Positions 29 through 33,471 of a DNA stretch of 42,011 nucleotides are shown piece after piece; positions within the stretch are counted from its first letter, which is position 1; the number at the start of each line of letters is the position of its first letter. This DNA comes from an uncultured Candidatus Saccharibacteria bacterium. GTDB lineage: Bacteria > Patescibacteriota > Minisyncoccia > Phycocordibacterales > 2-01-FULL-51-21. Under the pieces are notes generated by a model that was not told the DNA's origin, did no database searches, and saw nothing but the letters and a program-made list of their open reading frames with translations. Location: NCBI GenBank assembly GCA_964348955.1, contig CAYGEN010000002.1, forward strand, positions 1 through 42,011, written 5' to 3'. The position numbers and the translations under genes are program-made.

Positions 29-57
29 ACCGCGAGAGCTTTGCTCTCGCGGTTTTT
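29..57. terminator. Bidirectional intrinsic-terminator-like hairpin
   Basis: Perfect 10-bp stem ccgcgagagc/gctctcgcgg (30-39/43-52) with a 3-nt loop. A-run upstream and TTTTT (53-57) downstream. Lies 3' of the minus-strand toxin gene. Confidence 0.6.
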
Positions 58-124
58 ACTTTTAATATTTTAAAAGAAGTTATTTTCTTGATTCAATTAT
101 CGTCTGCGTCACGCGAGCCGCCAC

Positions 125-724: not shown

Positions 725-2872
725 TTACTTACGTGATTCAATAATTGTCTGCGCGACGTTCTGCGGAACGGCTTCATAATGGTCAAACTCCATGGTAGAG
801 GTGCCGCGCCCTTCCGTCATTGAGCGTAGTGCGGTGGTGTAGCCAAACATTTCCGCGAGCGGCACTTTGGCGACGATAGCTTTGAGCATGCCGCGCTCGG
901 TCATGCTCTCAATCTGTCCGCGCTTTGAATTTAAATTACCGGTTACGTCTCCCATAAATTGCTCCGGCACAACGACTTCCACTTTCATAATGGGCTCAAG
1001 GAGCACTGGCGTGGCGCGGGAAGCGGCTTCTTGAAACGCTTGCGAAGCCGCGATTTTGAATGCGATTTCAGATGAGTCCACATCGTGGTAGGAGCCGTCG
1101 TAGAGCTCTACGGAAATGTCGGTCATCTTGTAGCTTGCCACAACACCGCGCTCCATTCCTTCGCGAACGCCTTTTTCAATCGCAGGAATGTATTCATGCG
1201 GCACCACTCCGCCCTTGATGTTGTTGATGAATTCAAAATTCTTTTCGCGCTTCACATTCTTTGCAATCTTTCCGCCTTCCTGAACCGGTTCAAGCGGCTT
1301 CACGCGAATCTTCACATGGCCGTACTGACCGCGACCGCCGGACTGGCGGATGTATTTCCCTTCCGCTTCCGCCGGTTTCTGAATCGTCTCGCGGTAGGCG
1401 ACCTGCGGCTTGCCGACATTTGCCGCAACGCCAAACTCGCGCTTCATGCGATCTACGATGATGTCCAGATGCAACTCACCCATGCCGGAGATGATAGTCT
1501 CCATCGTCTCTTGGTCGGTCGTAATTTTAAAGGTCGGGTCTTCGTCGGAGAGTTTTTTGAGTGCAAGACCCATTTTCTCCTGGTCTGCTTTTGTCTTCGG
1601 CTCAATGCGAAGGGAAACAACCGGTTCGGGAAAGACGATGCGTTCAAGGATGATAGGCGATTCCGGGTCGCACAAAGTGTCCCCCGTGCGCGTGCTCTTC
1701 AAGCCCACCGCCGCGGCAATGCCGCCCGCATGCACCTCCTTCATTTCTTCCCGCTGGTTGGCATGCATGCGTAAAATGCGGCCGATGCGCTCTTTCTCGC
1801 CATTCGTCGTGTTCAAAATGTAGGAGCCCGCGGCTAACACGCCGGAGTACACGCGAAAGTAGGTGAGCTGTCCGACGAAGGGGTCGGACTGAAGTTTGAA
1901 AGCGAGCGCCGCAAACGGCTCTTCGTCAGAGGGGCGCCGAAAAATCTCTTCCCCGCTCTTCGGGTCAATGCCTTTAACGGGAGGCACATCCATGGGCGAG
2001 GGCAGATAGTCAACCACGCCGTCAAGGACGAGCTGTACGCCTTTGTTTTTAAGCGCCGAGCCACAGAAAACGGGCACTATGGTGTTCATAATGGTTGCCT
2101 TGCGCAAAATCTTTTTGAGCTCCGCGAGCGGCACTTCTTTGCCATCAAGGAATTCCGCCATCGCTTCGTCATCATGCTCAACTATTCTTTCAATCAGCTC
2201 GGCATGATATTTTTCAGCTTCCGCCTTAAGCCCCTCGGGGATGTCTTTCATAACCACCTGGCTGCCCATTTCACCTTCAAAGTAGTACGCTTTCATGGTA
2301 AGCAAATCAACGACGCCTTCGTGCGCAGACTCCTCACCGATAGGAATCTGCATGCGGACGGCGGCTTTGGTGAGCCGTTCAAGAATTGATTGGAACGAGC
2401 GCTCAAACGAAGCGCCCATGCGGTCTAGCTTGTTAATGAAGCAGATGCGCGGCACACGGTAGTCGTCCGCATAGCGCCAGTTCGTTTCCGACTGCGGCTC
2501 CACTCCCGCAACGCCGTCAAAGACAACCACCGCGCCGTCCAAAACGCGAAGCGAGCGCTTCACTTCCACCGTGAAATCAATATGTCCCGGCGTGTCAATG
2601 ATATTGAAACGATGCTCAAGCTCCATATTCCCCTTGTCGTAGGTAGGCGTCCAAAAACAGGTGATGGCGGCGGAGGTAATGGTGATGCCCCGCTCGCGTT
2701 CCTGCTCCATCCAATCCGTCACGGTCTCGCCTTCGTGCACCTCGCCGATTTTGTGCGACATGCCCGTATAGAAAAGCACACGCTCGCTGGTCGTCGTTTT
2801 TCCCGCATCAATGTGCGCGATGATGCCGAAGTTACGAATTTTCTCTAGGGAGTGAAATTTTAATTCAGCCAT
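725..2872 (-). CDS. fusA: Translation elongation factor G
   Basis: ORF 725..2896. The N-terminus [33 protein letters not shown] contains the G1 motif, and the protein is EF-G-like along its full length. The ATG at 2872 is preferred over the GTG at 2896. Confidence 0.95.
2812..2860. repeat. 49-bp perfect direct repeat, copy 1 (inside the real fusA 5' coding region)
   Basis: tgtgcgcgatgatgccgaagttacgaattttctctagggagtgaaattt is identical to 3021-3069. Confidence 0.95.
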
Positions 2873-2887
2873 ACGAGTATGCATTAT

Positions 2888-3030
2888 ATCGCGCACATTG
2901 ATGCGCCGAAGGGGGTCGGGGAAACAGCGGTTTCCCTGTGGAGGAAACCAGTCCCGTTTAGGCGGGGCGTCAGAAACCGTGGGTTTCCGAAGAGGCGTGC
3001 GTAGCGAGCCGATGCACCATTGTGCGCGAT
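2888..3030. other. Structured GC-rich insert between the fusA repeats (core 2908-2998 closed by a ~17-20-bp imperfect inverted repeat)
   Basis: atcgcgcacattgatgcgcc (2888-2907) is an inverted copy of fusA codons and pairs with 3011-3030. Core hairpins are gggaaac-agcg-gtttccc, cccg-tttagg-cggg and gaaacc-gtg-ggtttc. The core is homologous to 26688-26792. Confidence 0.5.
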
Positions 3031-3069
3031 GATGCCGAAGTTACGAATTTTCTCTAGGGAGTGAAATTT
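3021..3069. repeat. 49-bp perfect direct repeat, copy 2 (decoy fusA 5' end)
   Basis: Identical to 2812-2860. Similarity continues with 2 mismatches into 3011-3020 versus 2802-2811. Confidence 0.95.
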
Positions 3070-3209
3070 GTTTTCGTTTGCCATAGTTACGGCTTGTAGC
3101 TTTTTAGCTTATAGCTTCTTAATTTTTTTAGGAAATAGCCACGTGCCACAAAAAGAAAAGCGCCGATGGCGCTCAATAAACATAACAGAAACCAACCGAA
3201 GCGCAACCG

Positions 3210-3452
3210 TTACTTTCGCAGCCCAATTTTGGTGCTGACGAGACGCATTTTGTCTTCAAGAACTTCAATTCGCCGCTCATGAGAGCTCAAATGAAATTCA
3301 ACGCGGTCAAACCGATGATTGACTTCTTTGCGGAAATTATCTACATCTTTGCGGAAATCTTCCAGATCAGATTTGGTTCCCGCAAAACCTCTTTGCACCA
3401 TGACCGCAAGACCCTCGACAAGTTCGTCTGTAGTTTTTTTCTTCTTTGCCAC
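3210..3452 (-). CDS. Hypothetical small coiled-coil protein (80 aa, GTG start)
   Basis: ORF with heptad-like charged repeats. TATACT lies 7 nt upstream of the GTG start. Confidence 0.55.
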   Translation of the reverse strand: MAKKKKTTDELVEGLAVMVQRGFAGTKSDLEDFRKDVDNFRKEVNHRFDRVEFHLSSHERRIEVLEDKMRLVSTKIGLRK

Positions 3453-3521: not shown

Positions 3522-3755
3522 TTATTTCCTCAGCAAGCGCAAAAATTCTTCCACCGAAAGCCGAGCCTGTTTCAGAACAGACGAGAGTAGCGCGCGAGAA
3601 ATATCTTTAGAGTGCAGGGGTACGGTTACGAGCCTCGTCGTCTCCTTTACATGCCGCAATCGTACATGACTTCCTGTTTGACGGATAATTTTAAATCCGC
3701 CTTTTCGTAATGCCCGAATGATTACGGCGGCACGCAGCGCTGGAAGAATGCTCAT
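3522..3755 (-). CDS. hicA: HicA-family toxin (YcfA-like mRNA interferase)
   Basis: 77 aa. IIRALRKGGFKIIRQTGSHVRLRH is the typical HicA dsRBD-like motif. Overlaps the upstream gene by 4 nt. Confidence 0.8.
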   Translation of the reverse strand: MSILPALRAAVIIRALRKGGFKIIRQTGSHVRLRHVKETTRLVTVPLHSKDISRALLSSVLKQARLSVEEFLRLLRK

Positions 3756-4033
3756 ACTACAAGCGCAATGGGGCCTGAATGATGCATCAGTTTCCCCCGT
3801 GCGTAGATATGTCGTTCATCGTCGATAACCGCCTTACCTTCGCTCAAAGCCTCCTCGGCAAGCAGTTCAATTAAATCGGCCGCCATCTTTTTTACTTGAG
3901 CAAGAGTACTCCCTTGCGTCAGGGCATTCTCAAAAGCCGGTACTTCGGCAAGATAAACCTTATCTCGCTTATCAAACCAAATCACGGTCTGAAAAGAGCC
4001 GTAGGTTGTTTTAATAGGATATTTTTTCTTCAT
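3752..4033 (-). CDS. hicB: HicB-like antitoxin (UPF0150 fold)
   Basis: The ORF contains WFDKRDKVYLAEVPAFENALTQGSTLAQVKKMAADLIELLAEE. The start is taken at ATG 4033 (MKKKYPIK), which is preceded by a TATATA/TACTAT -10-like box. The ORF track extends it to 4069. Confidence 0.7.
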   Translation of the reverse strand: MKKKYPIKTTYGSFQTVIWFDKRDKVYLAEVPAFENALTQGSTLAQVKKMAADLIELLAEEALSEGKAVIDDERHIYARGKLMHHSGPIALVV

Positions 4034-4238
4034 TGCACCTATATAGTATCCTCTTTTTTCTATATACACAATAAAGAAAAAACAAAAAAATGCACTTCAG
4101 GCGTCGTTACGAGAATTGCATAAGTTCAGATACCTTTAGCACTCCTCTTAATTTGAGACTGCCACTTAATCCTGCCAGGAATCATTGAATGGAGTTGAAT
4201 CAGCGACCATGGGTAGGCCGCCGATTATTTTGTGAAGG

Positions 4239-4706
4239 CTACCACGCAAAGTGGGCAAACGCTTTGTTTGATTCCGCCATGCGATGCGTGTCCTCCTTCT
4301 TTTTTACCGCCACTCCTTCATTGTTGGACGCGGCAATAAGCTCCTCCGAAAGACGCAGGTACATGGGTGCACCCTTCTTTGACTTTGCGGCGGCGATAAT
4401 CCAACGATACGCCAGCGAGAGTCGGCGCTCGGGACGCACTTCGCGCGGCACCTGGTAGTTGGCGCCGCCGACGCGGCGCGAGCGCACCTCAACCGCCGGC
4501 GAAACATTTTTTATCGCCGCTTCAAATACCGGCAGAGGGTCGCTCTTTGTTTTTTCTTTTATTTCGTCAAACGCGCGGTAGACGATTTTCCGAGCCGCGT
4601 TTTTCCTGCCCTCCTGCATAAGGTAATTCATGAGTTTGGTAACTTTCACCGAGCCATACACGGCATCGGGGGAAAGTAGCTGTTTCGTTTTAAGTTTTCT
4701 TCGCAT
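4239..4706 (-). CDS. rpsG: 30S ribosomal protein S7
   Basis: 155-aa ORF that is S7-like throughout (e.g. [15 protein letters not shown]). Confidence 0.95.
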
Positions 4707-5222: not shown

Positions 5223-5870
5223 TTACCGCCCGGTAATAAGCGAAAAGACAACTGAGACAATGTTTAGAAGAACAGGAAGAAAGAGAAATCCAAAAAGAAT
5301 GAGAAATAAGAACAGGCCGAGAAGCCCGAGCCCTGCAAATCGGTTGCCGAAGTCCATAAACCGCCGGTGTAGATGATAGGGTAAAAACGCGGCAAGCACT
5401 TTAGAACCGTCAAGCGGCGGGAACGGGATGAGATTGAAAATCGCGAGCATAATGTTGTAAAAGACCACAAGAGACGCCAGCGAGATAAACGAGGGAGGCA
5501 GGACCGACGCGCCAAAGCGGATGACGAATCCAAAGATAACCGCAATGAGAAGATTTATGCCCGGTCCGGCGCCCGCAACCATTGCCTCACCCCACCGCGC
5601 ATTTTTCAGGTTATATGCGTTATACGGCACCGGTTTCGCCCATCCAAAAAAAAGGTTTGAGTTTGTGATGACCAGGAGCGCGGGAATGATAATTGAGCCG
5701 AGTGGGTCAATGTGTTTTAGGGGGTTTAAGGTAAGCCGCCCTGCGAGACGCGCCGTAGGGTCGCCAAGCCAGTTGGCGACCACGCCGTGCATAACCTCGT
5801 GTATGACGATAGAGAAAACGAGTATAAGAATGCCAAAAAGAGTTTCAAGTTGCATGCAATGTAGCGTCAT
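5223..5870 (-). CDS. Site-2 protease family (M50) membrane metalloprotease
   Basis: HEVMHG zinc motif, multiple TM segments, and a NLIPFPPLDGSKV motif. The N-terminal 126 codons of track ORF 5223..6248 were discarded because they are antisense to rpmB. An alternative start lies at 5855. Confidence 0.8.
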   Translation of the reverse strand: MTLHCMQLETLFGILILVFSIVIHEVMHGVVANWLGDPTARLAGRLTLNPLKHIDPLGSIIIPALLVITNSNLFFGWAKPVPYNAYNLKNARWGEAMVAGAGPGINLLIAVIFGFVIRFGASVLPPSFISLASLVVFYNIMLAIFNLIPFPPLDGSKVLAAFLPYHLHRRFMDFGNRFAGLGLLGLFLFLILFGFLFLPVLLNIVSVVFSLITGR

Positions 5871-6236: not shown

Positions 6237-6263
6237 TTTATCAAACACCGAGTGTTTGATAAA
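6237..6263. repeat. 27-nt perfect palindrome TTTATCAAACAC-CGA-GTGTTTGATAAA (copy 1 of 3)
   Basis: Lies between the convergent rpmB and MBL genes. The same 12-3-12 palindrome occurs at 24924-24950 and 25112-25138. Confidence 0.9.
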
Positions 6264-24920: not shown

Positions 24921-24953
24921 TTGTTTATCAAACACCGAGTGTTTGATAAACAA
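24921..24953. repeat. Palindrome family copy 2 (27-nt core 24924-24950, extended to 33 nt) plus an adjacent half-site at 24907-24918
   Basis: ttg-tttatcaaacac-cga-gtgtttgataaa-caa. The half-site tttatcaaacac lies 5 nt upstream. Confidence 0.9.
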
Positions 24954-25111
24954 TGATGAGTGCATCATAGGAGTGTATGTATACACCACCCCAAAGCTAT
25001 GTTTTGGAGATGAATGCGCGAAGACGCGAAGATGAAAAACACGCGATGCGAACACACAATGCAGAAATGGCAGAGAAAAGGTATAGGAAGGCATAAGAAA
25101 AATGTACACTC

Positions 25112-25138
25112 TTTATCAAACACTCGGTGTTTGATAAA
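25112..25138. repeat. Palindrome family copy 3 (centre TCG, i.e. inverted relative to copies 1 and 2)
   Basis: tttatcaaacac-tcg-gtgtttgataaa. Confidence 0.9.
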
Positions 25139-25217
25139 TCAGAGGGATGGTGGAATGAGGAACTTATATGTTCGCGCTTTGCCATGCCAACACCAATCCC
25201 CTACTTACTGGACTGGG

Positions 25218-26687: not shown

Positions 26688-26792
26688 GAGAACCGAAGGT
26701 TCAAAACGCTGACCCGCCCTTTCCGCAGAAAGAGCGGGTTCACGGCTCTCCTCTACGGGGAACCGGGTACGGTTCCCCGACCCCCCCTCCGC
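26688..26792. repeat. Second copy of the GC-rich structured core found inside the fusA duplication (inverted orientation)
   Basis: The reverse complement aligns with 2908-2998. Shared blocks are GGGGGTCGGGGAA, GGTTYCCCYGTRGAGGA and GGCGGG..TCAG. All three hairpins are retained with different stem sequences. Confidence 0.5.
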
Positions 26793-26969
26793 ATAGATAA
26801 CAATAAGACGGCTATAGTTGTCTTATTGTTATCTTTTCAATTTCTCTCATATACGCATACTGCCAAATACAAAGTACAACGAGTATGAATACTTATGCTA
26901 TAGCATAAGTATTCATACTCGTTGGGTTGATATTGGCGTTGATATTGGTGTTAAGGCAATCGTAAAATA
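26789..26969. repeat. Conserved 3' module of the beta-propeller paralogs, copy 1
   Basis: Contains hairpin gataacaataagac/gtcttattgttatc (26796-26833, followed by TTTT) and a 46-nt perfect palindrome (26878-26923). Confidence 0.9.
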
Positions 26970-29276
26970 TCAGAAATTCTTGAATCCTGTTTGTACTCTG
27001 GTTGCGGCTACATCCACCGTAAGATAAGAGTCCGGTACATCGGAAACCTCTCCGTCGCTTCCCACTATCGTAATGGCGAAATTTTTTGGCAGTCCGGCTG
27101 GCGCTTTGGAAAAGGTAACGGTCATAACCGAACTAGCCGAAGAGTCACCGCCTTGGGAAGGGTCCAAGGAAGTAAAGGGTGAAAATGTAACGGTACTCCC
27201 CGGCGGCAGTTCTGGCGAGTCCGAAACAAGCGTAAGCGTTATGTTGGAAAGCGGTCTGTTCGGAGTTGCATATCCAGCAAACGGCACGGCAACGATGGTG
27301 GTTTTAGCGACCGCACCGCCCGTGCCGATAAATGTAACGCTCGTCTGAATATTGGGACTATAAATATAGAATCCCGCGGGCGATACCGTTACCGATGTAT
27401 CTGCACGCGCCTCTCCCGCAAGCCCCTCGCAGTGAAGTGAAAGCTGATAGGTGTTGCCTACTCCCGTGAATGGCCCGACGTCGCTTTGCACCTGTGTTAT
27501 GGTCGGCACCGATTTAGGCCCTCCCCAGTTTAAAACCCCAGGGTTCGCGCTCGCCGTGCAAGTATTAAAGCTGTTAGAGCCGAACCATGAGAGTTCAGTA
27601 TTCTGGCCATCCCCGACAACTGCCGGATTTGCCGTGAGTGTGAGCGTCTGCGGCGACTTTTTATGCACGCCGCCCTTTGCCGGACTGAACTCAATCCAGC
27701 CGATAACATCGCCGCCCCACGCATGGCCGTAGAAATCTTTGCCTTCGGTGATGCCGACTTGGTAGTTGGAAGTGCCACACCCGGCAAAATCACCTTCGCC
27801 AATTGCTGACTCACAATCCAAACTAATCCACCCGTCCCAGCCGCCTGCCTGAGCGTCAATCGCGGAGAGTGCCCGCGCCCAGCCCGTTATTATTGCATCT
27901 GGAGAACCATTGTTGGAATAGGCATCCGGGTGAAAAGGGTCCCCACCCTCATTACTTTCCCCAAACGCAATCCACCCCACATTATCGCTCCACGCATACC
28001 CGGTCATGTCTCCAGTAAAATCATCAATCGTAACGCCGTAGGGAGGTATTGGCGTGCCTCCGAGGGGACACCCGGGAAGCGTTGTGCCGTCAAGAATCCA
28101 ATCCAGAGGGTTTGACAGTGGAGCGCTGAAGATTGAATCTGTGGCTACTCCAGTCTCACCTTCAACACCCCCAAAGAGATAAACGCGGTCGCCGATGGTT
28201 GCAATGCTTGAGAATACGAGCCCCACGGGGAGCTTTGCTCCTGTATTAACCCATCTCAATGGATCAGAAACCGGGGCGCGGAATATCATGTTGGTTATAC
28301 TACCCGGACCTTCGTACCCCCCAAAAAGGTAGACATAGTCGCCGATGACTTTGAGTTGGGAATGTGCAAGGCCGTTAGTGAGCGTGGCACCAGTATTGAT
28401 CCAGTTCGTGGGATCAGAAACTGGGGCGCTGTAGATGGTGTTGAGAGAATTAGAAAAAGCATCTCTTCCCCCAAAGAGATAAACATGGTCGCCGATGACG
28501 GCAAGTTGGGGGGCATAAAGACTACCAGGGAGTGTGGCATTGGTATTAATCCAGTTCGTGGGATCAGAAACTGGGGCGCGGAATATCATGTTGGTTATAG
28601 TGCCCGGACCTTCGTACCCCCCAAAAAGGTAGATATAGCCGCCAATGACAGCTGATTGGGAATGTGCAAGGCCGTTAGTGAGCGGGGCGCCGGTATTGCT
28701 CCAGTTCGTGGGATCAGAAACTGGGGCGCGGTAGATGATTTTGCTAGCAGAACCAAAAGGAAGGCTTCCCCCAAAGAGATATACATAGTCATCAGTGCCG
28801 TCACTATCAACATCAACGACAGCAAGTTGGGAACCATAAAGACCACTGGGGAGTGGTGTGCCGCCGGCATTGCTCCAGTTCGTGGGATCAGAAACCGGGG
28901 CGCGGTAGATGGTGTTGGTGACAAAAAAGTTAGTTCTTCCTCCAAAAAGATAAACATAGTCATCAGCGCCATCGCTATCAACATCAACGACAGCGAGAGA
29001 AGAGAGGTAGAGGGGCTCGTGAAGTTTGCCGACGACCACATTGTCGGAGGTACCATCGCCGTTTAAGTCGCAGTTCGCCGAGCTGAAGCTAATCCATCCC
29101 ACATTGTCGCTCCATGCCCAGCCGTAGACATTGTTAGAAGAAGCCGCGCGTGCAATTACTCCTTTTGAAAGAAGTATGTCAATGGCAAAAGAGCCGCCGA
29201 CCGTGAGAAGCGCCACGAGAAGCGCAATGAATATCTTGCGGTTCATAATGAGTGCGATACCGTTCATATCACTCAT
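26970..29276 (-). CDS. Secreted six-bladed Kelch-like beta-propeller protein with three GWxW..GWIxF motifs and C-terminal Ig-like domains (paralog 1)
   Basis: 768 aa. Signal-like MNRKIFIALLVALL. YGWAWSDNVGWISF, GYAWSDNVGWIAF and GHAWGGDVIGWIEF motifs. Six blades of the pattern YVYLFGG...I(Y/F)RAPVSDPTNW. The true start is probably ATG 29267 or 29246 because TATACT abuts the first ATG. Confidence 0.8.
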   Translation of the reverse strand: MSDMNGIALIMNRKIFIALLVALLTVGGSFAIDILLSKGVIARAASSNNVYGWAWSDNVGWISFSSANCDLNGDGTSDNVVVGKLHEPLYLSSLAVVDVDSDGADDYVYLFGGRTNFFVTNTIYRAPVSDPTNWSNAGGTPLPSGLYGSQLAVVDVDSDGTDDYVYLFGGSLPFGSASKIIYRAPVSDPTNWSNTGAPLTNGLAHSQSAVIGGYIYLFGGYEGPGTITNMIFRAPVSDPTNWINTNATLPGSLYAPQLAVIGDHVYLFGGRDAFSNSLNTIYSAPVSDPTNWINTGATLTNGLAHSQLKVIGDYVYLFGGYEGPGSITNMIFRAPVSDPLRWVNTGAKLPVGLVFSSIATIGDRVYLFGGVEGETGVATDSIFSAPLSNPLDWILDGTTLPGCPLGGTPIPPYGVTIDDFTGDMTGYAWSDNVGWIAFGESNEGGDPFHPDAYSNNGSPDAIITGWARALSAIDAQAGGWDGWISLDCESAIGEGDFAGCGTSNYQVGITEGKDFYGHAWGGDVIGWIEFSPAKGGVHKKSPQTLTLTANPAVVGDGQNTELSWFGSNSFNTCTASANPGVLNWGGPKSVPTITQVQSDVGPFTGVGNTYQLSLHCEGLAGEARADTSVTVSPAGFYIYSPNIQTSVTFIGTGGAVAKTTIVAVPFAGYATPNRPLSNITLTLVSDSPELPPGSTVTFSPFTSLDPSQGGDSSASSVMTVTFSKAPAGLPKNFAITIVGSDGEVSDVPDSYLTVDVAATRVQTGFKNF

Positions 29277-29320
29277 AGTATACTAGACTATGCGCATCAC
29301 TGGAGAGGGCGGTGTGGATT
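29212..29320. repeat. 109-bp perfectly identical 5' module (promoter plus first codons), copy 1
   Basis: Identical to 32032-32140. Contains the TAGTATACT -10 and a start-region hairpin. Confidence 0.9.
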
Positions 29321-29342
29321 CAAAAATCCCAAACCATAGGGG

Positions 29343-29367
29343 TGTAGCAAGGTGACACCTTGCTACA
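29343..29367. repeat. Solo copy of the IS200-like hairpin tgtagcaaggtg-a-caccttgctaca
   Basis: Perfect 12-bp arms. The same hairpin flanks the Y1 transposase gene 3.3 kb away. Confidence 0.85.
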
Positions 29368-29368
29368 C

Positions 29369-29534
29369 GGCACCGCATAGATAACCATAAGACGACTATA
29401 GCCGTCTTATGGTTATCTTTTCAATTTCTCCCATATACGCATACTGCCAAATACAAAGAGTACGAATACTTATGCTATAGCATAAGTATTCGTACTAGTT
29501 GGGTTGATATTGGTGTTAAGGCAATCGTAAAATA
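29369..29534. repeat. Conserved 3' module, copy 2
   Basis: Hairpin gataaccataagacg/cgtcttatggttatc (29380-29417, followed by TTTT) and a 38-nt palindrome (29459-29496). Confidence 0.9.
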
Positions 29535-32096
29535 TCAGAAATTCTTGAATCCTGTTTGTACCTTGACTGCTTTCACGAGCACGGTGACGGTGGAGTCCGG
29601 AGAAGGGTTGTTGGTGTCGCTTCCCACCACTTTAATATAAAAGTCTTGCGGCAGTGGGTATGGCGCTTTGGAAAAGGTAATGGTCATGAGCGAACCCTCG
29701 CTATACGCGGAAGAGCCGGTAAATGAGGAGGGTGCGAAGGTAATAGTACTTCCGGGTGGCAATGCGGGAGAGACCGTCCATGAAAGGTTTATGGTATTGT
29801 CCGTATTATAACCGGCAACCGGCGTGGCAAATATTTTGGTTTTAGCAACCGCGCCGCCCGTGCCGATAAACGCAACCGTTGGGTCACTAAGACGAGAAAT
29901 GGAAAAATAAGGAGCTACTACCGTTACCAATGTACTAGCATACGCTTCTCCCCCAGACCCCTCGCAGCGAAGTGAAAGCTGATAGGTGTTGCCTACTCCC
30001 GTGAACGGCCCGACGCTACTACTCGAAACAGGCGGGGGCGACTTTTTCTCACTCCCGACCTCGTTCCAGTTGCCAACTTCCACACCAGTGCCAGCCTGAC
30101 TCGCGCTCGCCGTACAAGTATTAAAGCTGTCAGAGCCGAACCATGAGAGTTGAGTATTCTGGCCATCTCCGACAACCGCCGGATTTGCCGTGAGCGTGAG
30201 GTTCTGCGGCGCCTTTTTGTGTACACCAAATTTTATGGCACTGACAACATTTGCCGGCTTGAACTCAATCCAGCCGATAACATCGCCGCCCCACGCATGG
30301 CCATAGAAATTTTCGCCCCCTGTAATACCCACTTGGTAATTGGAAGTGTTATTACAGCCGTTATCGGCAAAACCACTTTTGTCTTCTGCTGATTTACAAT
30401 CCAAGCTAATCCACCCGTCCCAGCCGCCTGCGTCGGCGTCAATCGCAGAAAGCGCCCGCGCCCAGCCGGTTATTTTCGCGTCGATAGAATCATTGTCGCT
30501 TCGCGCTTCGCACAACGGCTTGCAGAGTTTGCTTGCTGTTTTGTCCCGTCCATCAATGCGACCATCTTTGTCATTATCACCAAACGCAATCCACCCCACA
30601 TTGTCGCTCCACGCATACCCGGTCATCGCTCCGGTAAACTCGTTAATGGTAACGCCATAGGGAGGTACCGGCTCTCCCTCTAAAGGGCAACCGGGAAGCG
30701 TCATGCCGTCAATAATCCAATCAGTCGGGTCGGAAAGGGGGGCGCGAAAAATGTAATCATGTACTTCCACCCCTACTTTCAACCCGCTACCCTCACCTAA
30801 GTTGTCAATCCCACCGAAGAGATACACATAGTCGCCGATGGTTTCAATATTTGAATACGCACGCCATGCAGGAATTCTTGCACCCGTATCAACCCACTTC
30901 GTTGGGTCGGATACGGGGGCGCGGAAGATATTGCTGTAGAAAGTGCTTCCGAAAAGGTAGACGTAGTCGCCGATGACAGCGAGTGATGAGTTAACGACTC
31001 CCGGCTCGCCACCATTAAAATTGCCATCGCACGGCGTACCGGTATCAGTAAACGGGAGTTTCTTACCGGTATCCTCCCAATTTCCAGGGAAATATGGGTC
31101 AGTGATATCTGCGCGAAGGATGGAATCACTGCGGCCATGAAACCATACAACCGAATCGCCTAAGTATTCATCATTTGTCCCGCCAAAGAGGTAGGCGTAC
31201 TTGCCGATAACAGCTATATGCGACTTTTGAAGGCCGTGCTCCACATACTGTGTAAGAGTTTTTGGACACGTTCTAGGAGACATCTCACGCCAAAAAGTGA
31301 TTGGCGGAAGTTTTTTGCCGGTGTCTACCCAGTTTGCCGGGAATGTCGGGTCGGTGGTGTCTGCGCGGTAGATGACATCGGAACTTTGGTTGAAGGTATC
31401 ACGGATGGAGGCACCACCGAAGAGGTAAACGTATTTTTTGCCATTGGAGTCGGGGATGATGGCGATGGAAGAGTGTTCAAGTTTACCCGGAAGACGTATG
31501 GCCGAGTTTGCCTCCGTCATGTTCATCCAGTTCGTCGGGTCAGAAACGGGAGCGCGGTAAATAATGTCTTGTATGCCCCCGCTGTAATTACCTTCTTCGT
31601 TCACAGTATAGTCGCTCCCACCGAAGAGGTAGATGTATGGGTCTATCTTTATAATGCTTGAATTGCCGAGATTGCTCGGGAGCACTTTGCCGGTGTCAAT
31701 CCACTTTGTCGGGTCGGCGGTGTCTGCGCGGTAGATGACATTGGTGTAAGGGCCATATGAGCCCCCGTCCTTGTCAGTGCCCCCGAAGAGAAAAACGGAG
31801 TCACCGACAACTTGGAGGTGCGAGCTGGCAAGCGGTGCGGGAAGTCTGCCGGCAATTACATTGTCAGAAGTCCCGTCGCCGTCCAAATCACAGCTGTTTG
31901 AGTTGAAACTTATCCACCCGATGTTGTCGCTCCATGCCCAGCCGTAGACATTATCAGTAGAAGCCGCACGGGCAATCGCTCCTTTTGAAAGAAGTGAGTC
32001 TAGGGCAAGAGAGCCACCGAGCGCGAGGAGTGCCACGAGAAGCGCAATGAATATCTTGCGGTTCATAATGAGTGCGATACCGTTCATATCACTCAT
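29535..32096 (-). CDS. Secreted Kelch-like beta-propeller protein, paralog 2
   Basis: 853 aa. The N-terminal 24 aa are identical to paralog 1. It has the same three GW motifs and the same C-terminus VQTGFKNF. The blades are more divergent (YRADTADPTKW, YRADTTDPTFPANW, LRADITDPYFPGNW). Confidence 0.8.
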   Translation of the reverse strand: MSDMNGIALIMNRKIFIALLVALLALGGSLALDSLLSKGAIARAASTDNVYGWAWSDNIGWISFNSNSCDLDGDGTSDNVIAGRLPAPLASSHLQVVGDSVFLFGGTDKDGGSYGPYTNVIYRADTADPTKWIDTGKVLPSNLGNSSIIKIDPYIYLFGGSDYTVNEEGNYSGGIQDIIYRAPVSDPTNWMNMTEANSAIRLPGKLEHSSIAIIPDSNGKKYVYLFGGASIRDTFNQSSDVIYRADTTDPTFPANWVDTGKKLPPITFWREMSPRTCPKTLTQYVEHGLQKSHIAVIGKYAYLFGGTNDEYLGDSVVWFHGRSDSILRADITDPYFPGNWEDTGKKLPFTDTGTPCDGNFNGGEPGVVNSSLAVIGDYVYLFGSTFYSNIFRAPVSDPTKWVDTGARIPAWRAYSNIETIGDYVYLFGGIDNLGEGSGLKVGVEVHDYIFRAPLSDPTDWIIDGMTLPGCPLEGEPVPPYGVTINEFTGAMTGYAWSDNVGWIAFGDNDKDGRIDGRDKTASKLCKPLCEARSDNDSIDAKITGWARALSAIDADAGGWDGWISLDCKSAEDKSGFADNGCNNTSNYQVGITGGENFYGHAWGGDVIGWIEFKPANVVSAIKFGVHKKAPQNLTLTANPAVVGDGQNTQLSWFGSDSFNTCTASASQAGTGVEVGNWNEVGSEKKSPPPVSSSSVGPFTGVGNTYQLSLRCEGSGGEAYASTLVTVVAPYFSISRLSDPTVAFIGTGGAVAKTKIFATPVAGYNTDNTINLSWTVSPALPPGSTITFAPSSFTGSSAYSEGSLMTITFSKAPYPLPQDFYIKVVGSDTNNPSPDSTVTVLVKAVKVQTGFKNF

Positions 32097-32140
32097 AGTA
32101 TACTAGACTATGCGCATCACTGGAGAGGGCGGTGTGGATT
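32032..32140. repeat. 109-bp identical 5' module, copy 2
   Basis: Identical to 29212-29320. Confidence 0.9.
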
Positions 32141-32228
32141 ATCGCCCCCTAGCCCTCTACTCTACTAACTCTCTACTCTATGAGCACAAACCCACGCGAG
32201 CAGTCACATAGCCACGCGAGCAAAACAA

Positions 32229-32245
32229 GCAAGGTGCCACCTTGC
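32229..32245. repeat. Degenerate copy of the IS200-like hairpin (gcaaggtg-c-caccttgc)
   Basis: Occupies the same position relative to the 3' module as the copy at 29343-29367. Confidence 0.7.
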
Positions 32246-32250
32246 GGCGC

Positions 32251-32436
32251 GGCACCGCATGCATAGCAATAAGACGGCTATAGCCGTCTTATGGTTATCT
32301 TTTCAATTTCTCCCATTCTCCCATATACGCATACTGCCAAATACAACTAGTACGAATACTTATGCTATAGCATACGTATTCGTACTAGTTGGGTTGGTAT
32401 TGGCATTGATATTGGCGTTAAGACAATCGTAAAATA
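32251..32436. repeat. Conserved 3' module, copy 3 (orphan)
   Basis: Hairpin ataagacggcta/tagccgtcttat (32269-32292) and a 42-nt palindrome with one mismatch (32347-32388). Confidence 0.9.
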
Positions 32437-32472
32437 TCAAAAATTCTGGAATCCTGTTTGTACCTTAACTGC
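32437..32472 (-). pseudogene. Stump of a third beta-propeller paralog (last 11 codons plus stop)
   Basis: The reverse complement reads AVKVQTGFQNF*, compared with KAVKVQTGFKNF* in paralog 2. Similarity ends at about 32472, 8 nt from the hairpin at 32481. Confidence 0.6.
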
Positions 32473-32480
32473 AAGGGGGG

Positions 32481-32505
32481 TGTAGCAAGGTGACACCTTG
32501 CTACA
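32481..32505. repeat. IS200-like hairpin plus duplicated left-end sequence (32481-32527)
   Basis: tgtagcaaggtg-a-caccttgctaca followed by gagcattaaaggtatagttagt. The same ~45-nt unit recurs at 32680-32728. Confidence 0.85.
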
Positions 32506-32679: not shown

Positions 32680-33471
32680 GTAGCAAGGTGTCACCTTGCT
32701 ACAATAAGCATTAAAGGTATAGTTAGTTAAAGGTATGGGAAACCGAGTGCCGTTTGCGCCAGATGAATGGTACCATTGTTATAGTCGTGGTGTTGAGAAA
32801 CGCCGCGTATTTGAAAACACCAGAGACTACCAACGTTTTATACAAACTCTATACTTAGCTAACAGCACCGAACCGATTCATCAAGACAACCTGCGTAAAT
32901 TCTCCCATGAAGAAATACTGAGCCAGCGGCGCGGCGACTTACTCGTTGCGGTCGGTGCATATTGCCTAATGCCAAACCATTTTCACTTACTATTGAAAGA
33001 GCTTGTAGATGGCGGGATTACACAGTTTATGCGTAAGGTAGGCACTGCCTATACTATGTATTTCAATATTAAAAATGAGCGTGTTGGTAATCTGTTCAAC
33101 AAACCATTTCGTTCAAAACATATCAATGACGATCGATATTTGAAGTGGGTGCCTCAATATTTACACCTTAATCCTGCTGAACTCTTCGAGCAAGGATGGA
33201 AAGAGGGCAAAGTAAAGAACTTCAAAAGTCTTACACAAAAACTGCGGCACTACCCATATAGCAGTTTTAGCGACTACTGCGGTATACAGCGTGTGGAAAG
33301 ATCAATTCTTCATGAGCCTTCGGTGGAAATGTTGAATGAGGATATGACTCCTGCCGCTAAACTCATTTCCAAAGCGCGTGGTTACTATCAAGAGCTTTCT
33401 TTGTGACAAAGTTATAGCTAGCGTTATAGTAAGGTAGCAAGGAGGAGAGGTAGCAAGGTGACACCTTGCTA
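32680..33471 (+). mobile_element. IS200/IS605-family (tnpA-only) element or REP/RAYT-like unit bounded by cognate hairpins
   Basis: Hairpins at 32680-32702 and 33451-33471 flank the Y1 transposase ORF. GC content is visibly lower than in the surrounding sequence. Confidence 0.7.
32735..33406 (+). CDS. tnpA: HUH-Y1 transposase (IS200-like / RAYT-like)
   Basis: 223 aa. The HUH motif is in YCLMPNHFHLLLKE. The catalytic Tyr region is QYLHLNPAE. Confidence 0.85.
   Translation: MGNRVPFAPDEWYHCYSRGVEKRRVFENTRDYQRFIQTLYLANSTEPIHQDNLRKFSHEEILSQRRGDLLVAVGAYCLMPNHFHLLLKELVDGGITQFMRKVGTAYTMYFNIKNERVGNLFNKPFRSKHINDDRYLKWVPQYLHLNPAELFEQGWKEGKVKNFKSLTQKLRHYPYSSFSDYCGIQRVERSILHEPSVEMLNEDMTPAAKLISKARGYYQELSL

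Follow-up and report, generated by a model that had tools for sequence, protein, structure and literature searches.

A conserved structured element of Paceibacteria as a probable insertion in the 5′ end of fusA

In this study we describe the 5′ end of the fusA gene, coding for elongation factor EF-G, in a 42,011-nt stretch of bacterial DNA, which as a whole is referred to as the window. Two copies of the beginning of the gene are located there on both sides of a GC-rich structured core, denoted element E, and the region comprises the following features:

725..2872, minus strand: functional fusA (EF-G, 715 aa), starting with ATG 2872; 84% identity to Kaiserbacteria EF-G
2805..2860, no strand assigned: gene-body copy of the duplicated host segment (fusA codons 5-23), of which 49 nt (2812-2860) equal the other copy
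2861..2887, minus strand: 27-nt junction segment, unique in the window, supplying ATG 2872 (MAEL...) and the ATAAT of the -10 box
2888 to 2883, minus strand: TATAAT, a putative promoter box that bridges the end of the inverted copy and the adjoining 27-nt segment, 10 nt ahead of ATG 2872
2888..2905, plus strand: inverted copy (t′), in which the opening 18 nt of the duplicated host segment are repeated directly next to the 5′ end of E
2906..3013, plus strand (antisense to fusA): element E, GC-rich (63%) structured core of 108 nt, with covariance-model matches of 130.8 and 117.9 bits
3014..3069, no strand assigned: displaced copy of the duplicated host segment, with 2 mismatches, both within the 7 nt adjoining E
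2884..3084, minus strand: relic ORF of 66 codons, reading from the displaced fusA start ATG 3084 through the complement of E, with its TAA 12 nt before the functional ATG
3158..3174, minus strand: terminator-like hairpin belonging to an 80-aa ORF upstream; after it comes the presumed promoter region of native fusA (3085-3150)

Several of these elements had been named in a preliminary description of the DNA, and they are present. The 49-nt identical repeat reported there (2812-2860 and 3021-3069) extends to 56 nt (2805-2860 and 3014-3069, 96% identity), the two mismatches being T/C and A/T on the plus strand. The downstream copy does continue from ATG 2872 into full-length EF-G, ending at 725, and the product is equal in length to that of the closest relative (P0002); the gene caller placed the fusA start at ATG 2884 (P0001), not at ATG 2872. 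The upstream copy, as had been noted, has its own ATG at 3084 and stops after 66 codons, at 2884, with the TAA (2886-2884) falling within the TATAAT. In this relic ORF ATGGCAAACGAAAAC is similar to the native ATGGCAGAAAAC of the relative L088. Exact-protein look-ups with both possible EF-G starts and with the 66-aa ORF gave no match.

The inverted copy of fusA codons was located at 2888-2905 and is 100% complementary over its 18 nt to 2804-2821, while with 3014-3030 it is 88% complementary over 17 nt, with one A.A mismatch and one G.U pair on the fusA strand. A 49-nt repeat and an 18-nt perfect inverted repeat within 300 nt are beyond chance expectation. The two alternative helices proposed from these segments have duplex energies of -27.8 and -34.6 kcal/mol and a fold z-score of -5.2 against shuffles; folding of the whole leader gave -102.5 kcal/mol with the upstream helix forced and -108.2 kcal/mol with the downstream helix, which is the minimum free energy structure. 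The TATAAT, perfect as described, was created where the inverted copy (...GCGCGAT) meets the segment ATAATGC..., and a search for an acceptable -35 partner of this box found none. Similarity of the 27-nt segment to the displaced native fusA start was not significant. Hairpin-plus-T-run motifs are located upstream of fusA also in the relatives L082, L085 and L088. Apparent fusA inserts in many relatives, indicated by long tblastn spans, turned out to be the downstream tuf gene.

The same DNA was found in two further contigs from independent assemblies, k141_1229721 of ENA ERZ27247830 (L081) and k141_595505 of ERZ27247820 (L120), which equal the window across 2800-3100 and differ from it by a few SNPs outside this region; the three strains are mutually 99.8-99.97% identical. 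The relic ORF was not called as a gene in either contig.

The core, previously given as three hairpins at 2908-2998, corresponds to element E, which in the window begins with GAAGGGGGTCGGGG, forms four hairpins and terminates with GCGAGCCGAT. Covariance models R1 and R2 matched it at 2903-3016 (118-131 bits), together with five other copies in four other Paceibacteria lineages. The copies and their flanks are as follows:

Window copy: 56-nt direct repeat and 18-nt inverted arm
L066, 5119-5239, after fusA, 121-138 bits: 73-nt direct repeat (63 nt exact) and 15-nt inverted arm
L066, 2120-2236, after rpsG, 45-85 bits: 16-nt direct repeat and 11-nt inverted arm
L070, 7211-7326, after rpsJ, 66-110 bits: 22-nt direct repeat and 15-nt inverted arm, with a 4-nt loop
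L133, 8470-8583, rplD 3′ end, 90 bits: no recognisable duplication or inverted copy
L134, 12128-12230, after fusA, 57 bits: 92-nt perfect direct repeat and 15-nt inverted arm overlapping the last 6 nt of repeat copy 1

These six confident copies all come from str/S10-operon neighbourhoods, which are the regions that were fetched. Both copies of L066 are present in an independent assembly (L122). The copy in the window and that at 5119-5234 of L066 share 83% column identity with compensatory stem changes; between their hosts, EF-G identity is only 66%. In the alignment of the six copies 94.1% of pair cells are standard pairs, and at 14 of the 26 pairs both sides have changed in a compensatory way. 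These counts were taken from a model-fitted alignment and are thus biased towards structure; the pairing statistics were reached by none of 500 shuffles, and slid controls gave 39-60%. The pairs include 16 G.U against 6 A.C, which favours the GGGGTCGGG strand, and the alifold energies of the two strands are -27.6 and -16.9 kcal/mol. GC content of the copies is 54-63%, as compared with 37-50% for the hosts. The 3′ end is GCGAGCGA(C) in five of six copies, and the 5′ ends vary (CCGAAGGGGG, CAGAAAGGGG, ACAAGGAGGGG, CACAGAAAGGGG, AGAGGGG and TCAAAGAGAGGG), with leader variation of up to 7 nt and no deep 5′ truncations among the six.

Comparison of the window with the covariance models of Rfam 15 gave no match at the gathering score and no tRNA or tmRNA; over 2700-3300 Rfam returned solely a spurious SNORD70 (E = 3.5), and over the copies of L066 and L070 nothing at E values up to 10. 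Six scans of IMG/VR, including consensus patterns, and BLAST against phages and plasmids did not find the element. A metagenome scan gave 29 pattern-level look-alikes on high-GC soil contigs, with no blastn homology; its pattern predates the L066 copy and used window-specific stems only, so it is not a census of E. E is a previously undescribed conserved structured element of 100-165 nt, occurring in several Paceibacteria (CPR) lineages.

The surroundings of the copies follow one order at five of the six sites: a host segment, an inverted copy of its first 10-18 nt, E, and a direct duplicate of the segment (16-92 nt). In all five informative copies the inverted copy ends at most 1 nt from the left edge of the duplication, and the repeat sequences are unrelated among these sites. 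Element-free relatives allow the direct duplicate to be recognized as a target-site duplication. L123, with EF-G 91% identical to that of L070, has no E at rpsJ, and its gene end (EIEVKTT*) equals the first copy of L070; in L133 fusA is not followed by E, and the native gene end together with the sequence downstream of it agrees with the displaced copy of L066. At both empty sites the segment is single-copy. For the window locus the nearest E-free relative has 84% EF-G identity. The hairpin upstream of E is made from target sequence in at least L070 and L134, and the empty site of L123 lacks it. The two post-fusA copies, in the L066 and L134 lineages, are located at the same fusA nucleotide and represent independent insertions. 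The gene-side copy in L066 contains a synonymous recoded patch, which the insertion model leaves unexplained.

As a source of the inverted copy in the window we also considered the tuf codons for YAHIDAP (19 of 19 nt in tuf of L015, 17 of 18 in the host's own tuf); these were rejected in favour of fusA (18 of 18), because every other such inverted copy derives from the flank of its own site. A foreign donor of the gene-side ends was likewise rejected, as the repeat copies are mutually identical yet differ between lineages.

We consider it probable that the insert in the window is one copy of E, acting as a small, GC-rich, structured and non-autonomous mobile element, and that the 49/56-nt repeat is its target-site duplication. 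The 18-nt inverted copy adjoining the 5′ end of E is a junction by-product of the insertion, which incidentally also created the decoy ORF, the alternative helices and the TATAAT. The preliminary description had also suggested a small inserted element which supplies a replacement start and promoter; the first part holds, the core being the dispersed, conserved E, while the second does not, since start and promoter box both lie in the 27-nt junction DNA (2861-2887).

E would have entered the plus strand, antisense to fusA, at about codon 23-24, just before the P-loop codons. We propose that one target strand was nicked at the left edge of the duplicated segment, and that the nicked 3′ end primed the copying of E from its fixed 3′ end. 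The new strand would then snap back on 10-18 nt of neighbouring target DNA, and the other strand, cut 16-92 nt off, would anneal via 1-6 nt of microhomology, by which the insertion would be completed. The displaced native start would have given rise to the relic ORF, and fusA may now be expressed from the junction TATAAT with a near-leaderless mRNA, or by re-initiation after the stop of the relic ORF, 12 nt upstream. Since fusA is essential, an insertion could persist only if the gene side was left with a start codon in frame and a -10 box. Target-primed synthesis with snap-back fits the sites because the duplication length is variable, the 3′ end apparently fixed, the 5′ end ragged, and the junctions carry microhomology. 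We infer the target-primed mechanism with its RNA intermediate, the enzyme involved and the present mode of fusA expression. The gene tables of the loci and Pfam scans of the window revealed no reverse transcriptase, nuclease or transposase linked to any copy of E, the scans returning only a RAYT-like Y1 transposase 30 kb away and RNase H.

In a bolder form of this explanation, which we put forward tentatively, E would be a bacterial SINE: a structured RNA copied by reverse transcriptase into the nicked chromosome by target-primed synthesis, leaving long variable duplications and snap-back inverted junctions, with a preference for the ends of highly expressed translation genes, whose read-through transcription would supply new template RNA. 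We know of no endonuclease-reverse transcriptase of the LINE-1/R2 kind in CPR bacteria. Like SINEs and non-LTR retrotransposons (LINE-1, R2), E is a short structured non-coding unit without its own enzyme and has target-site duplications of variable length; its 5′ end is ragged, and its 3′ end, apparently fixed, bears a short tail of simple repeats (GCGA motifs). Microhomology and inverted copies of nearby target at the 5′ junction are also shared (R2 PRINT, PMC11371274), and for target-primed insertion by the R2 protein it is documented that neighbouring target DNA can be copied by snap-back at the 5′ junction (PMC11371274). E differs from those systems in its bacterial host, in duplications of up to 92 nt, in an RNA intermediate that is only inferred, and in the frequency of the inverted target copy, found in five of six copies as against a minor junction class there. 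Tandem inversion duplications (TID, DUP-TRP/INV-DUP) share with the E sites the direct-inverted-direct order and microhomology at the turn, but at the E sites the inverted copy, only 10-18 nt long, is always separated from the second direct copy by a conserved foreign element.

Among the other explanations, the best surviving one, though in our opinion unlikely, is that E is a MITE- or PATE-like DNA element, moved by a transposase or HUH/Y1 enzyme encoded elsewhere that acts on single-stranded hairpin DNA, and that the host, in repairing staggered breaks, produced the duplication and the inverted copy. A structure rich in hairpins and biased to one strand would suit such an enzyme, and among the genes of the window is one for a Y1_Tnp (RAYT-like) protein, accompanied by REP-like palindromes of its own; E, however, does not resemble the GTAG palindromes of the window and lacks the GTAGCAAGG palindrome flanking the Y1_Tnp gene. 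L013 contains an IS200-like element that likewise has a direct repeat on its flanks, 57 nt of a gene 3′ end, but its sequence is unrelated to E (scores against its ends are within the shuffle range), and it was rejected as a relative. Like bacterial MITEs and palindromic repeats (Correia, RUP, ERIC, Rickettsia palindromic elements), E is a non-autonomous unit (100-170 nt in those families) with stable hairpins, situated at gene ends or inside genes of small genomes, where the genes stay functional, and both can create promoters at junctions. In MITEs, by contrast, the terminal inverted repeats are encoded by the element itself, and the duplication is short and of fixed length. Terminal inverted repeats common to all copies of E are absent, the apparent ones being local target sequence, different at every site, and the duplications (16, 22, 56, 73 and 92 nt), accompanied by a ragged 5′ end, are unlike the products of transposase-cut ends. 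Furthermore, Rickettsia palindromic elements are translated in frame, whereas at the E sites the gene is rescued by the duplication. Group IIC introns, IS200/IS605, PATE and REP-RAYT systems resemble E in strand-biased hairpin structure, in location, several copies of E lying just 3′ of a gene-end stem-loop, and in site preference, seen for E as two independent hits at one fusA nucleotide. E has a target duplication, whereas these systems leave none; IS200/IS605 and REP elements are not known to make one. E is also too small for a group II ribozyme and has no Rfam match.

The preliminary description had further offered a cis-regulatory switch for EF-G, in which translation of the 66-codon decoy ORF and the mutually exclusive helices would set fusA expression, possibly exapted from an insertion. 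We regard it as rather improbable, and it is not supported by comparative evidence. The helices are strong, the relic ORF stop lies close enough to the real ATG to permit termination-reinitiation, and the arrangement is retained in three strains, but strains of such high identity make this retention uninformative. The same segment triplet and helices surround E after the stop codons of rpsG, rpsJ and fusA elsewhere, where a leader function is impossible, and for this reason the helices are read as an insertion signature. Since E is antisense here, its conserved structure is absent from the fusA transcript. Conservation in related genomes had been named as a check, and none of about 90 relatives (80 GTDB relatives and L082-L090) has such a fusA leader, a duplication at the fusA 5′ end, or E upstream of the gene.

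Less probable still is an attL/attR scar of a site-specific integrative element which brought a surrogate fusA 5′ end and promoter and decayed to 160 nt, in the manner of SXT/R391, whose integration into the prfC 5′ end was reportedly described by Hochhut and Waldor in 1999. A direct repeat does border DNA that holds a replacement start together with a -10 box, and small accessory genes, for instance HicAB, have a hot spot in the spacer between rpsG and fusA. As in SXT/R391 and phage or island surrogate ends, the 5′ end of a translational GTPase gene was hit, the new start and promoter lying towards the gene body and the native 5′ end being displaced upstream. Those elements, however, measure 100 kb, carry a tyrosine integrase and use a single fixed att core, whereas here the insert has 160 nt, the targets are many, and no integrase or recombinase is present in the 42-kb window. 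Moreover, at five other sites, where the 'att' sequences are unrelated, the insert consists of the 100-165-nt core and nothing else, unlike a decayed remnant, the repeat length ranges from 16 to 92 nt, and an inverted junction copy is foreign to att sites.

Finally, joining of two strain variants of the fusA 5′ end by the assembler, also raised before because the repeat sits in a metagenome-assembled contig, has a negligible probability and is refuted by three concordant assemblies from different samples, agreeing base for base over 2800-3100, with a 56-nt repeat shorter than typical reads and than the k = 141 used for the contigs of L081 and L120, and with the L066 structures recurring in L122 and that of L134 in L135-L138. 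Other identities were rejected as well: a diversity-generating retroelement, as A positions are unchanged in the 49-63-nt identical repeats and no reverse transcriptase is adjacent, and an inverton, a group I/II intron or internal guide, translational bypassing, an integron attC, a CRISPR or omega-RNA guide and an SRP-derived sequence, each of which failed a defining feature or Rfam.

Copies of E lie at the ends of translation genes in distantly related CPR bacteria, and the fusA arrangement is not a purpose-built EF-G switch. What appeared as a one-off oddity becomes a testable family, a conserved 100-165-nt element found across Paceibacteria whose EF-G is only about 65% identical, which implies either horizontal spread or strong constraint. 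Its signature, a 16-92-nt duplication with a 10-18-nt inverted target copy, differs from the signatures known for bacterial MITEs, IS elements, integrative elements and introns and resembles target-primed retrotransposition, a process which to our knowledge has not been described for non-intron elements in bacteria. In annotation, caution is needed with short relic ORFs and with alternative leader helices near CPR translation genes, as they can be insertion scars; the covariance model of E may be used for masking or cataloguing them. An essential gene survived an insertion in its P-loop-proximal codons, with its end duplicated and a putative promoter box at the junction. If E is indeed a bacterial SINE, it would represent a mode of retrotransposition undescribed for bacteria, and the tolerance of CPR genomes to hits in essential genes would be explained, because the long duplication regenerates the gene end.

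In the window, fusA is encoded on the minus strand (ATG 2872 to stop 725, 715 aa) and is preceded by rpsL, rpsG, a HicA/HicB-like pair and an 80-aa ORF. The pair (window 3522-4069, minus strand; HicA toxin, Pfam E = 1.5e-17, plus a HicB-like partner) lies between rpsG and fusA. In the relatives L082, L085 and L088 the small ORFs found in this rpsG-fusA spacer are different ones, which marks it out as an accessory-gene hot spot. The unusual fusA 5' end reported in the preliminary description is genuine, and more general than its author could see. It comprises:

2805-2860 and 3014-3069: direct repeat of 56 nt, 96% identity, 49 nt exact
2888-2905: inverted copy, 18 nt, perfect complement of 2804-2821, 88% complementary to 3014-3030
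ATG 3084 to TAA 2886-2884, minus strand: upstream ORF of 66 codons (relic ORF)
2888 to 2883, minus strand: TATAAT, 10 nt ahead of ATG 2872

The two alternative helices are also real, with duplex energies of -27.8 and -34.6 kcal/mol; the whole leader folds at -102.5 kcal/mol with the upstream helix versus -108.2 kcal/mol with the downstream one, and during transcription the upstream helix is the first of the two to form. A sigma-70 promoter search at the fusA 5' end gave no full promoter, the TATAAT being without a -35 partner.

Mis-assembly, one of the readings offered earlier, is contradicted by two assemblies from other ENA samples (L081, ERZ27247830; L120, ERZ27247820), which have an identical structure, down to the single base, in contigs assembled at k-mer 141, the repeat being far shorter than that k-mer. 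L120 differs from the window at 1 position in 3527 nt, and L081 by one fusA SNP, one contig-end difference and compensatory changes in the fusA terminator. In this terminator hairpin (window 34-58) both arms are changed, GCGAGAGC/GCTCTCGC against GCTGGAGC/GCTCCAGC, the strains being otherwise 99.8% identical.

A second reading, a decoy-leader switch controlling EF-G, draws on the real helices; yet neither a duplicated fusA 5' end nor similar upstream sequence was found in 80 species-level relatives and the three closest Kaiserbacteria loci. The host is a Kaiserbacteria-like CPR bacterium, whose best relatives have 84% identical EF-G. Judged by this comparison of sequences, the structure is not a conserved fusA leader. 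Both repeat copies encode one lineage-specific 16-residue peptide where relatives carry RDYPLEKVRNFG; the duplication therefore arose inside this lineage. Relic ORF, decoy start and both helices are an automatic outcome of insertion architecture.

The third reading, a small element supplying fusA with a new start and promoter, stands in part: the core belongs to a dispersed family, here called E, while ATG 2872 sits in 27 nt (2861-2887) outside E. A short-range direct-repeat scan of fetched loci led to a copy in L066, a Nealsonbacteria-like genome (37% GC), where 63 nt at the fusA 3' end are repeated exactly at a spacing of 219 nt. Between the repeats lies a homologue of the window core in plus-strand reading (83% column identity), with compensatory changes in the stems, and EF-G of the two hosts is only 66% identical. 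Covariance models (R1, R2) built from both cores were used to find copies, listed here with the duplicated host segment (H) and the short inverted copy of its start (t').

Copies of E and their flanks
Window 2903-3016, plus strand: 118-131 bits; fusA 5' end, antisense; H 56 nt, t' 18 nt
L066 5119-5239: 121-138 bits; after fusA; H 73 nt (63 exact), t' 15 nt
L066 2120-2236: 45-85 bits; after rpsG; H 16 nt, t' 11 nt
L070 7211-7326: 66-110 bits; after rpsJ; H 22 nt, t' 15 nt
L134 12128-12230: 57 bits; after fusA; H 92 nt, perfect, t' 15 nt
L133 8470-8583: 90 bits; rplD 3' end; no duplication found

Both L066 copies were recovered in the independent assembly L122, and the L134 copy in L135-L138. 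No E copy matched Rfam, and searches of phages, plasmids and IMG/VR gave zero matches to E. A weak second E-like match in the window, beginning GGGGGGGTCGGGGAACC, occupies 26692-26794 on the minus strand (17.8 bits, E about 0.01), directly after a 15-bp hairpin (AGATAACAATAAGAC...GTCTTATTGTTATCT), which also precedes the two paralogous Kelch genes, there without E. High-GC soil contigs (L091-L116; e.g. L094 1340-1420, after clpX) contain CATGGGGGAAACCGGGTTTCC hairpin units in tandem, with GAGCCCCCTCC behind them; a stem pattern picked these contigs up, but blastn shows no homology to E, and they were rejected as relatives.

Across the six copies standard pairs fill 94.1% of pair cells and 14 of 26 pairs are changed on both sides, values that are supportive and not conclusive, the alignment being model-fitted; no shuffle matched them, and slid controls reached 39-60%. 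The distal stem of the long hairpin A differs wholly from copy to copy. Because G.U pairs outnumber A.C (16 vs 6) and the GGGGTCGGG strand gives the more stable consensus fold (-27.6 vs -16.9 kcal/mol on the opposite one), this strand, antisense to fusA in the window, is the folded species, as RNA or ssDNA. The stretches conserved outside the stems comprise GGGGTCGGG, CCGTGNAGGAAAACAG, ACGTNAGAAACCG and a 3' tail rich in GCGA, which ends GCGAGCGA(C) in 5 of the 6 copies.

On the E strand five of six copies show the order H, at times a few extra nt, t', 2-9 variable nt, E, H, where t' repeats the first 10-18 nt of H in inverted form. Its length stays in this range independently of duplication length, and its end falls within 1 nt of the H left edge (5/5 copies with the signature). 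In L134, the youngest-looking copy, the repeat takes in 26 codons from the end of fusA, its stop codon and 13 nt of 3' UTR, and the final 6 nt of the first repeat copy are shared with the inverted arm (AAATTC pairing with GAATTT), a junction microhomology whose role in L070 is taken by the last 5 nt of rpsJ (CTTAA). E lies at the identical fusA nucleotide in L066 and L134, GGAAC^CTTTACAATGG; as right-hand ends and repeat sequences are lineage-specific, these are independent insertions at a preferred site, with which the window target has CAATG in common at the same offset. The gene-side fusA end of L066 (5079-5106 vs displaced 5298-5320) has seven synonymous substitutions, to codons that are minor ones for that genome, and a T6 insertion, in or just past its last six codons, next to 63 nt that do not differ between the two copies.

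Empty sites were found in L123 (EF-G 91% identical to L070), where rpsJ ends ...EIEVKTT* directly, like the first L070 copy, and in L133 (84% identical to L066), which has no E after fusA and whose native end with the sequence downstream of it, gaaggaaaaaggagataa|ATAATCCACAAG, matches the displaced second L066 copy, GAAGGGAAAAGGAGATAG|AATAATCCACTAC. H is therefore a target-site duplication. The original gene end is the H copy distal to the gene body; the window likewise has a displaced start, ATGGCAAACGAAAAC, similar to the native ATGGCAGAAAAC of L088.

We infer that E spread by copy-and-paste insertion through target-primed synthesis, which fits the variable duplication length, an apparently fixed 3' end with short-repeat tail, a 5' end that looks ragged among the six copies, microhomology and the inverted copy beside the priming site. 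A nick at the H left edge would prime copying from the E 3' end, the new strand would snap back on 10-18 nt of neighbouring target DNA, and the other strand, cut 16-92 nt off, would anneal and finish the insertion. R2-protein insertions are documented to include a class of 5' junction made by snap-back on target DNA close by (PMC11371274). Pfam scans of the window and gene tables of the other loci revealed no candidate mobilising enzyme near any copy, and a DNA-based route via an unlinked HUH or other nuclease is possible. With its retroposon-like signature, E is best filed among small non-autonomous mobile elements, as a new one.

Other mobile sequences were noticed. L134 carries an rve-type transposase and a large serine recombinase (837-2963) about 8 kb upstream of the E-bearing str operon, no link to E being established. 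In L013, an IS200-like element (3691-4396; 143-aa Y1 transposase, hairpin at each end), with zero sequence similarity to E, sits between the copies of a direct repeat of 57 nt (2 mismatches), in which the 3' end of a gene for a RelE-like toxin is duplicated; such a repeat is unusual, target duplication not being known for IS200/IS605 elements. The window encodes a 223-aa protein with an IS200-like Y1 domain (32735-33406, plus strand; Pfam E = 3.4e-5), flanked by GTAG-headed palindromes GTAGCAAGGTG(A/T)CACCTTGCTAC (29343-29368, 32480-32505, 32680-32703, 33450-33471), an arrangement that resembles a RAYT and its REP sequences, here in a CPR genome. The two large Kelch-repeat genes (26970-29276 and 29535-32096, within 26762-32463) have internal 150-nt repeats and conserved upstream regions with palindromes of 48 nt that are perfect or nearly so (26877-26924, 29454-29501, 32344-32391). 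Another palindrome, TTTATCAAACACCGAGTGTTTGATAAA, recurs in intergenic DNA (6237-6263, 24924-24950, 25107-25144) and could be a terminator or operator-like repeat.

E struck fusA antisense at about codon 23-24, and the gene side retained the 56-nt duplicated segment plus the 27 nt, which may be filler or the outer portion, much diverged, of a longer duplication. They contain the in-frame ATG and, joined to the final T of the inverted copy, form the perfect TATAAT. From this junction -10 box fusA could now be expressed as a near-leaderless transcript, or else by re-initiation once the relic ORF has ended. An intact MANENKF... gene would come back if the DNA between the 49-nt repeats were deleted, and the locus may therefore be polymorphic in nature.
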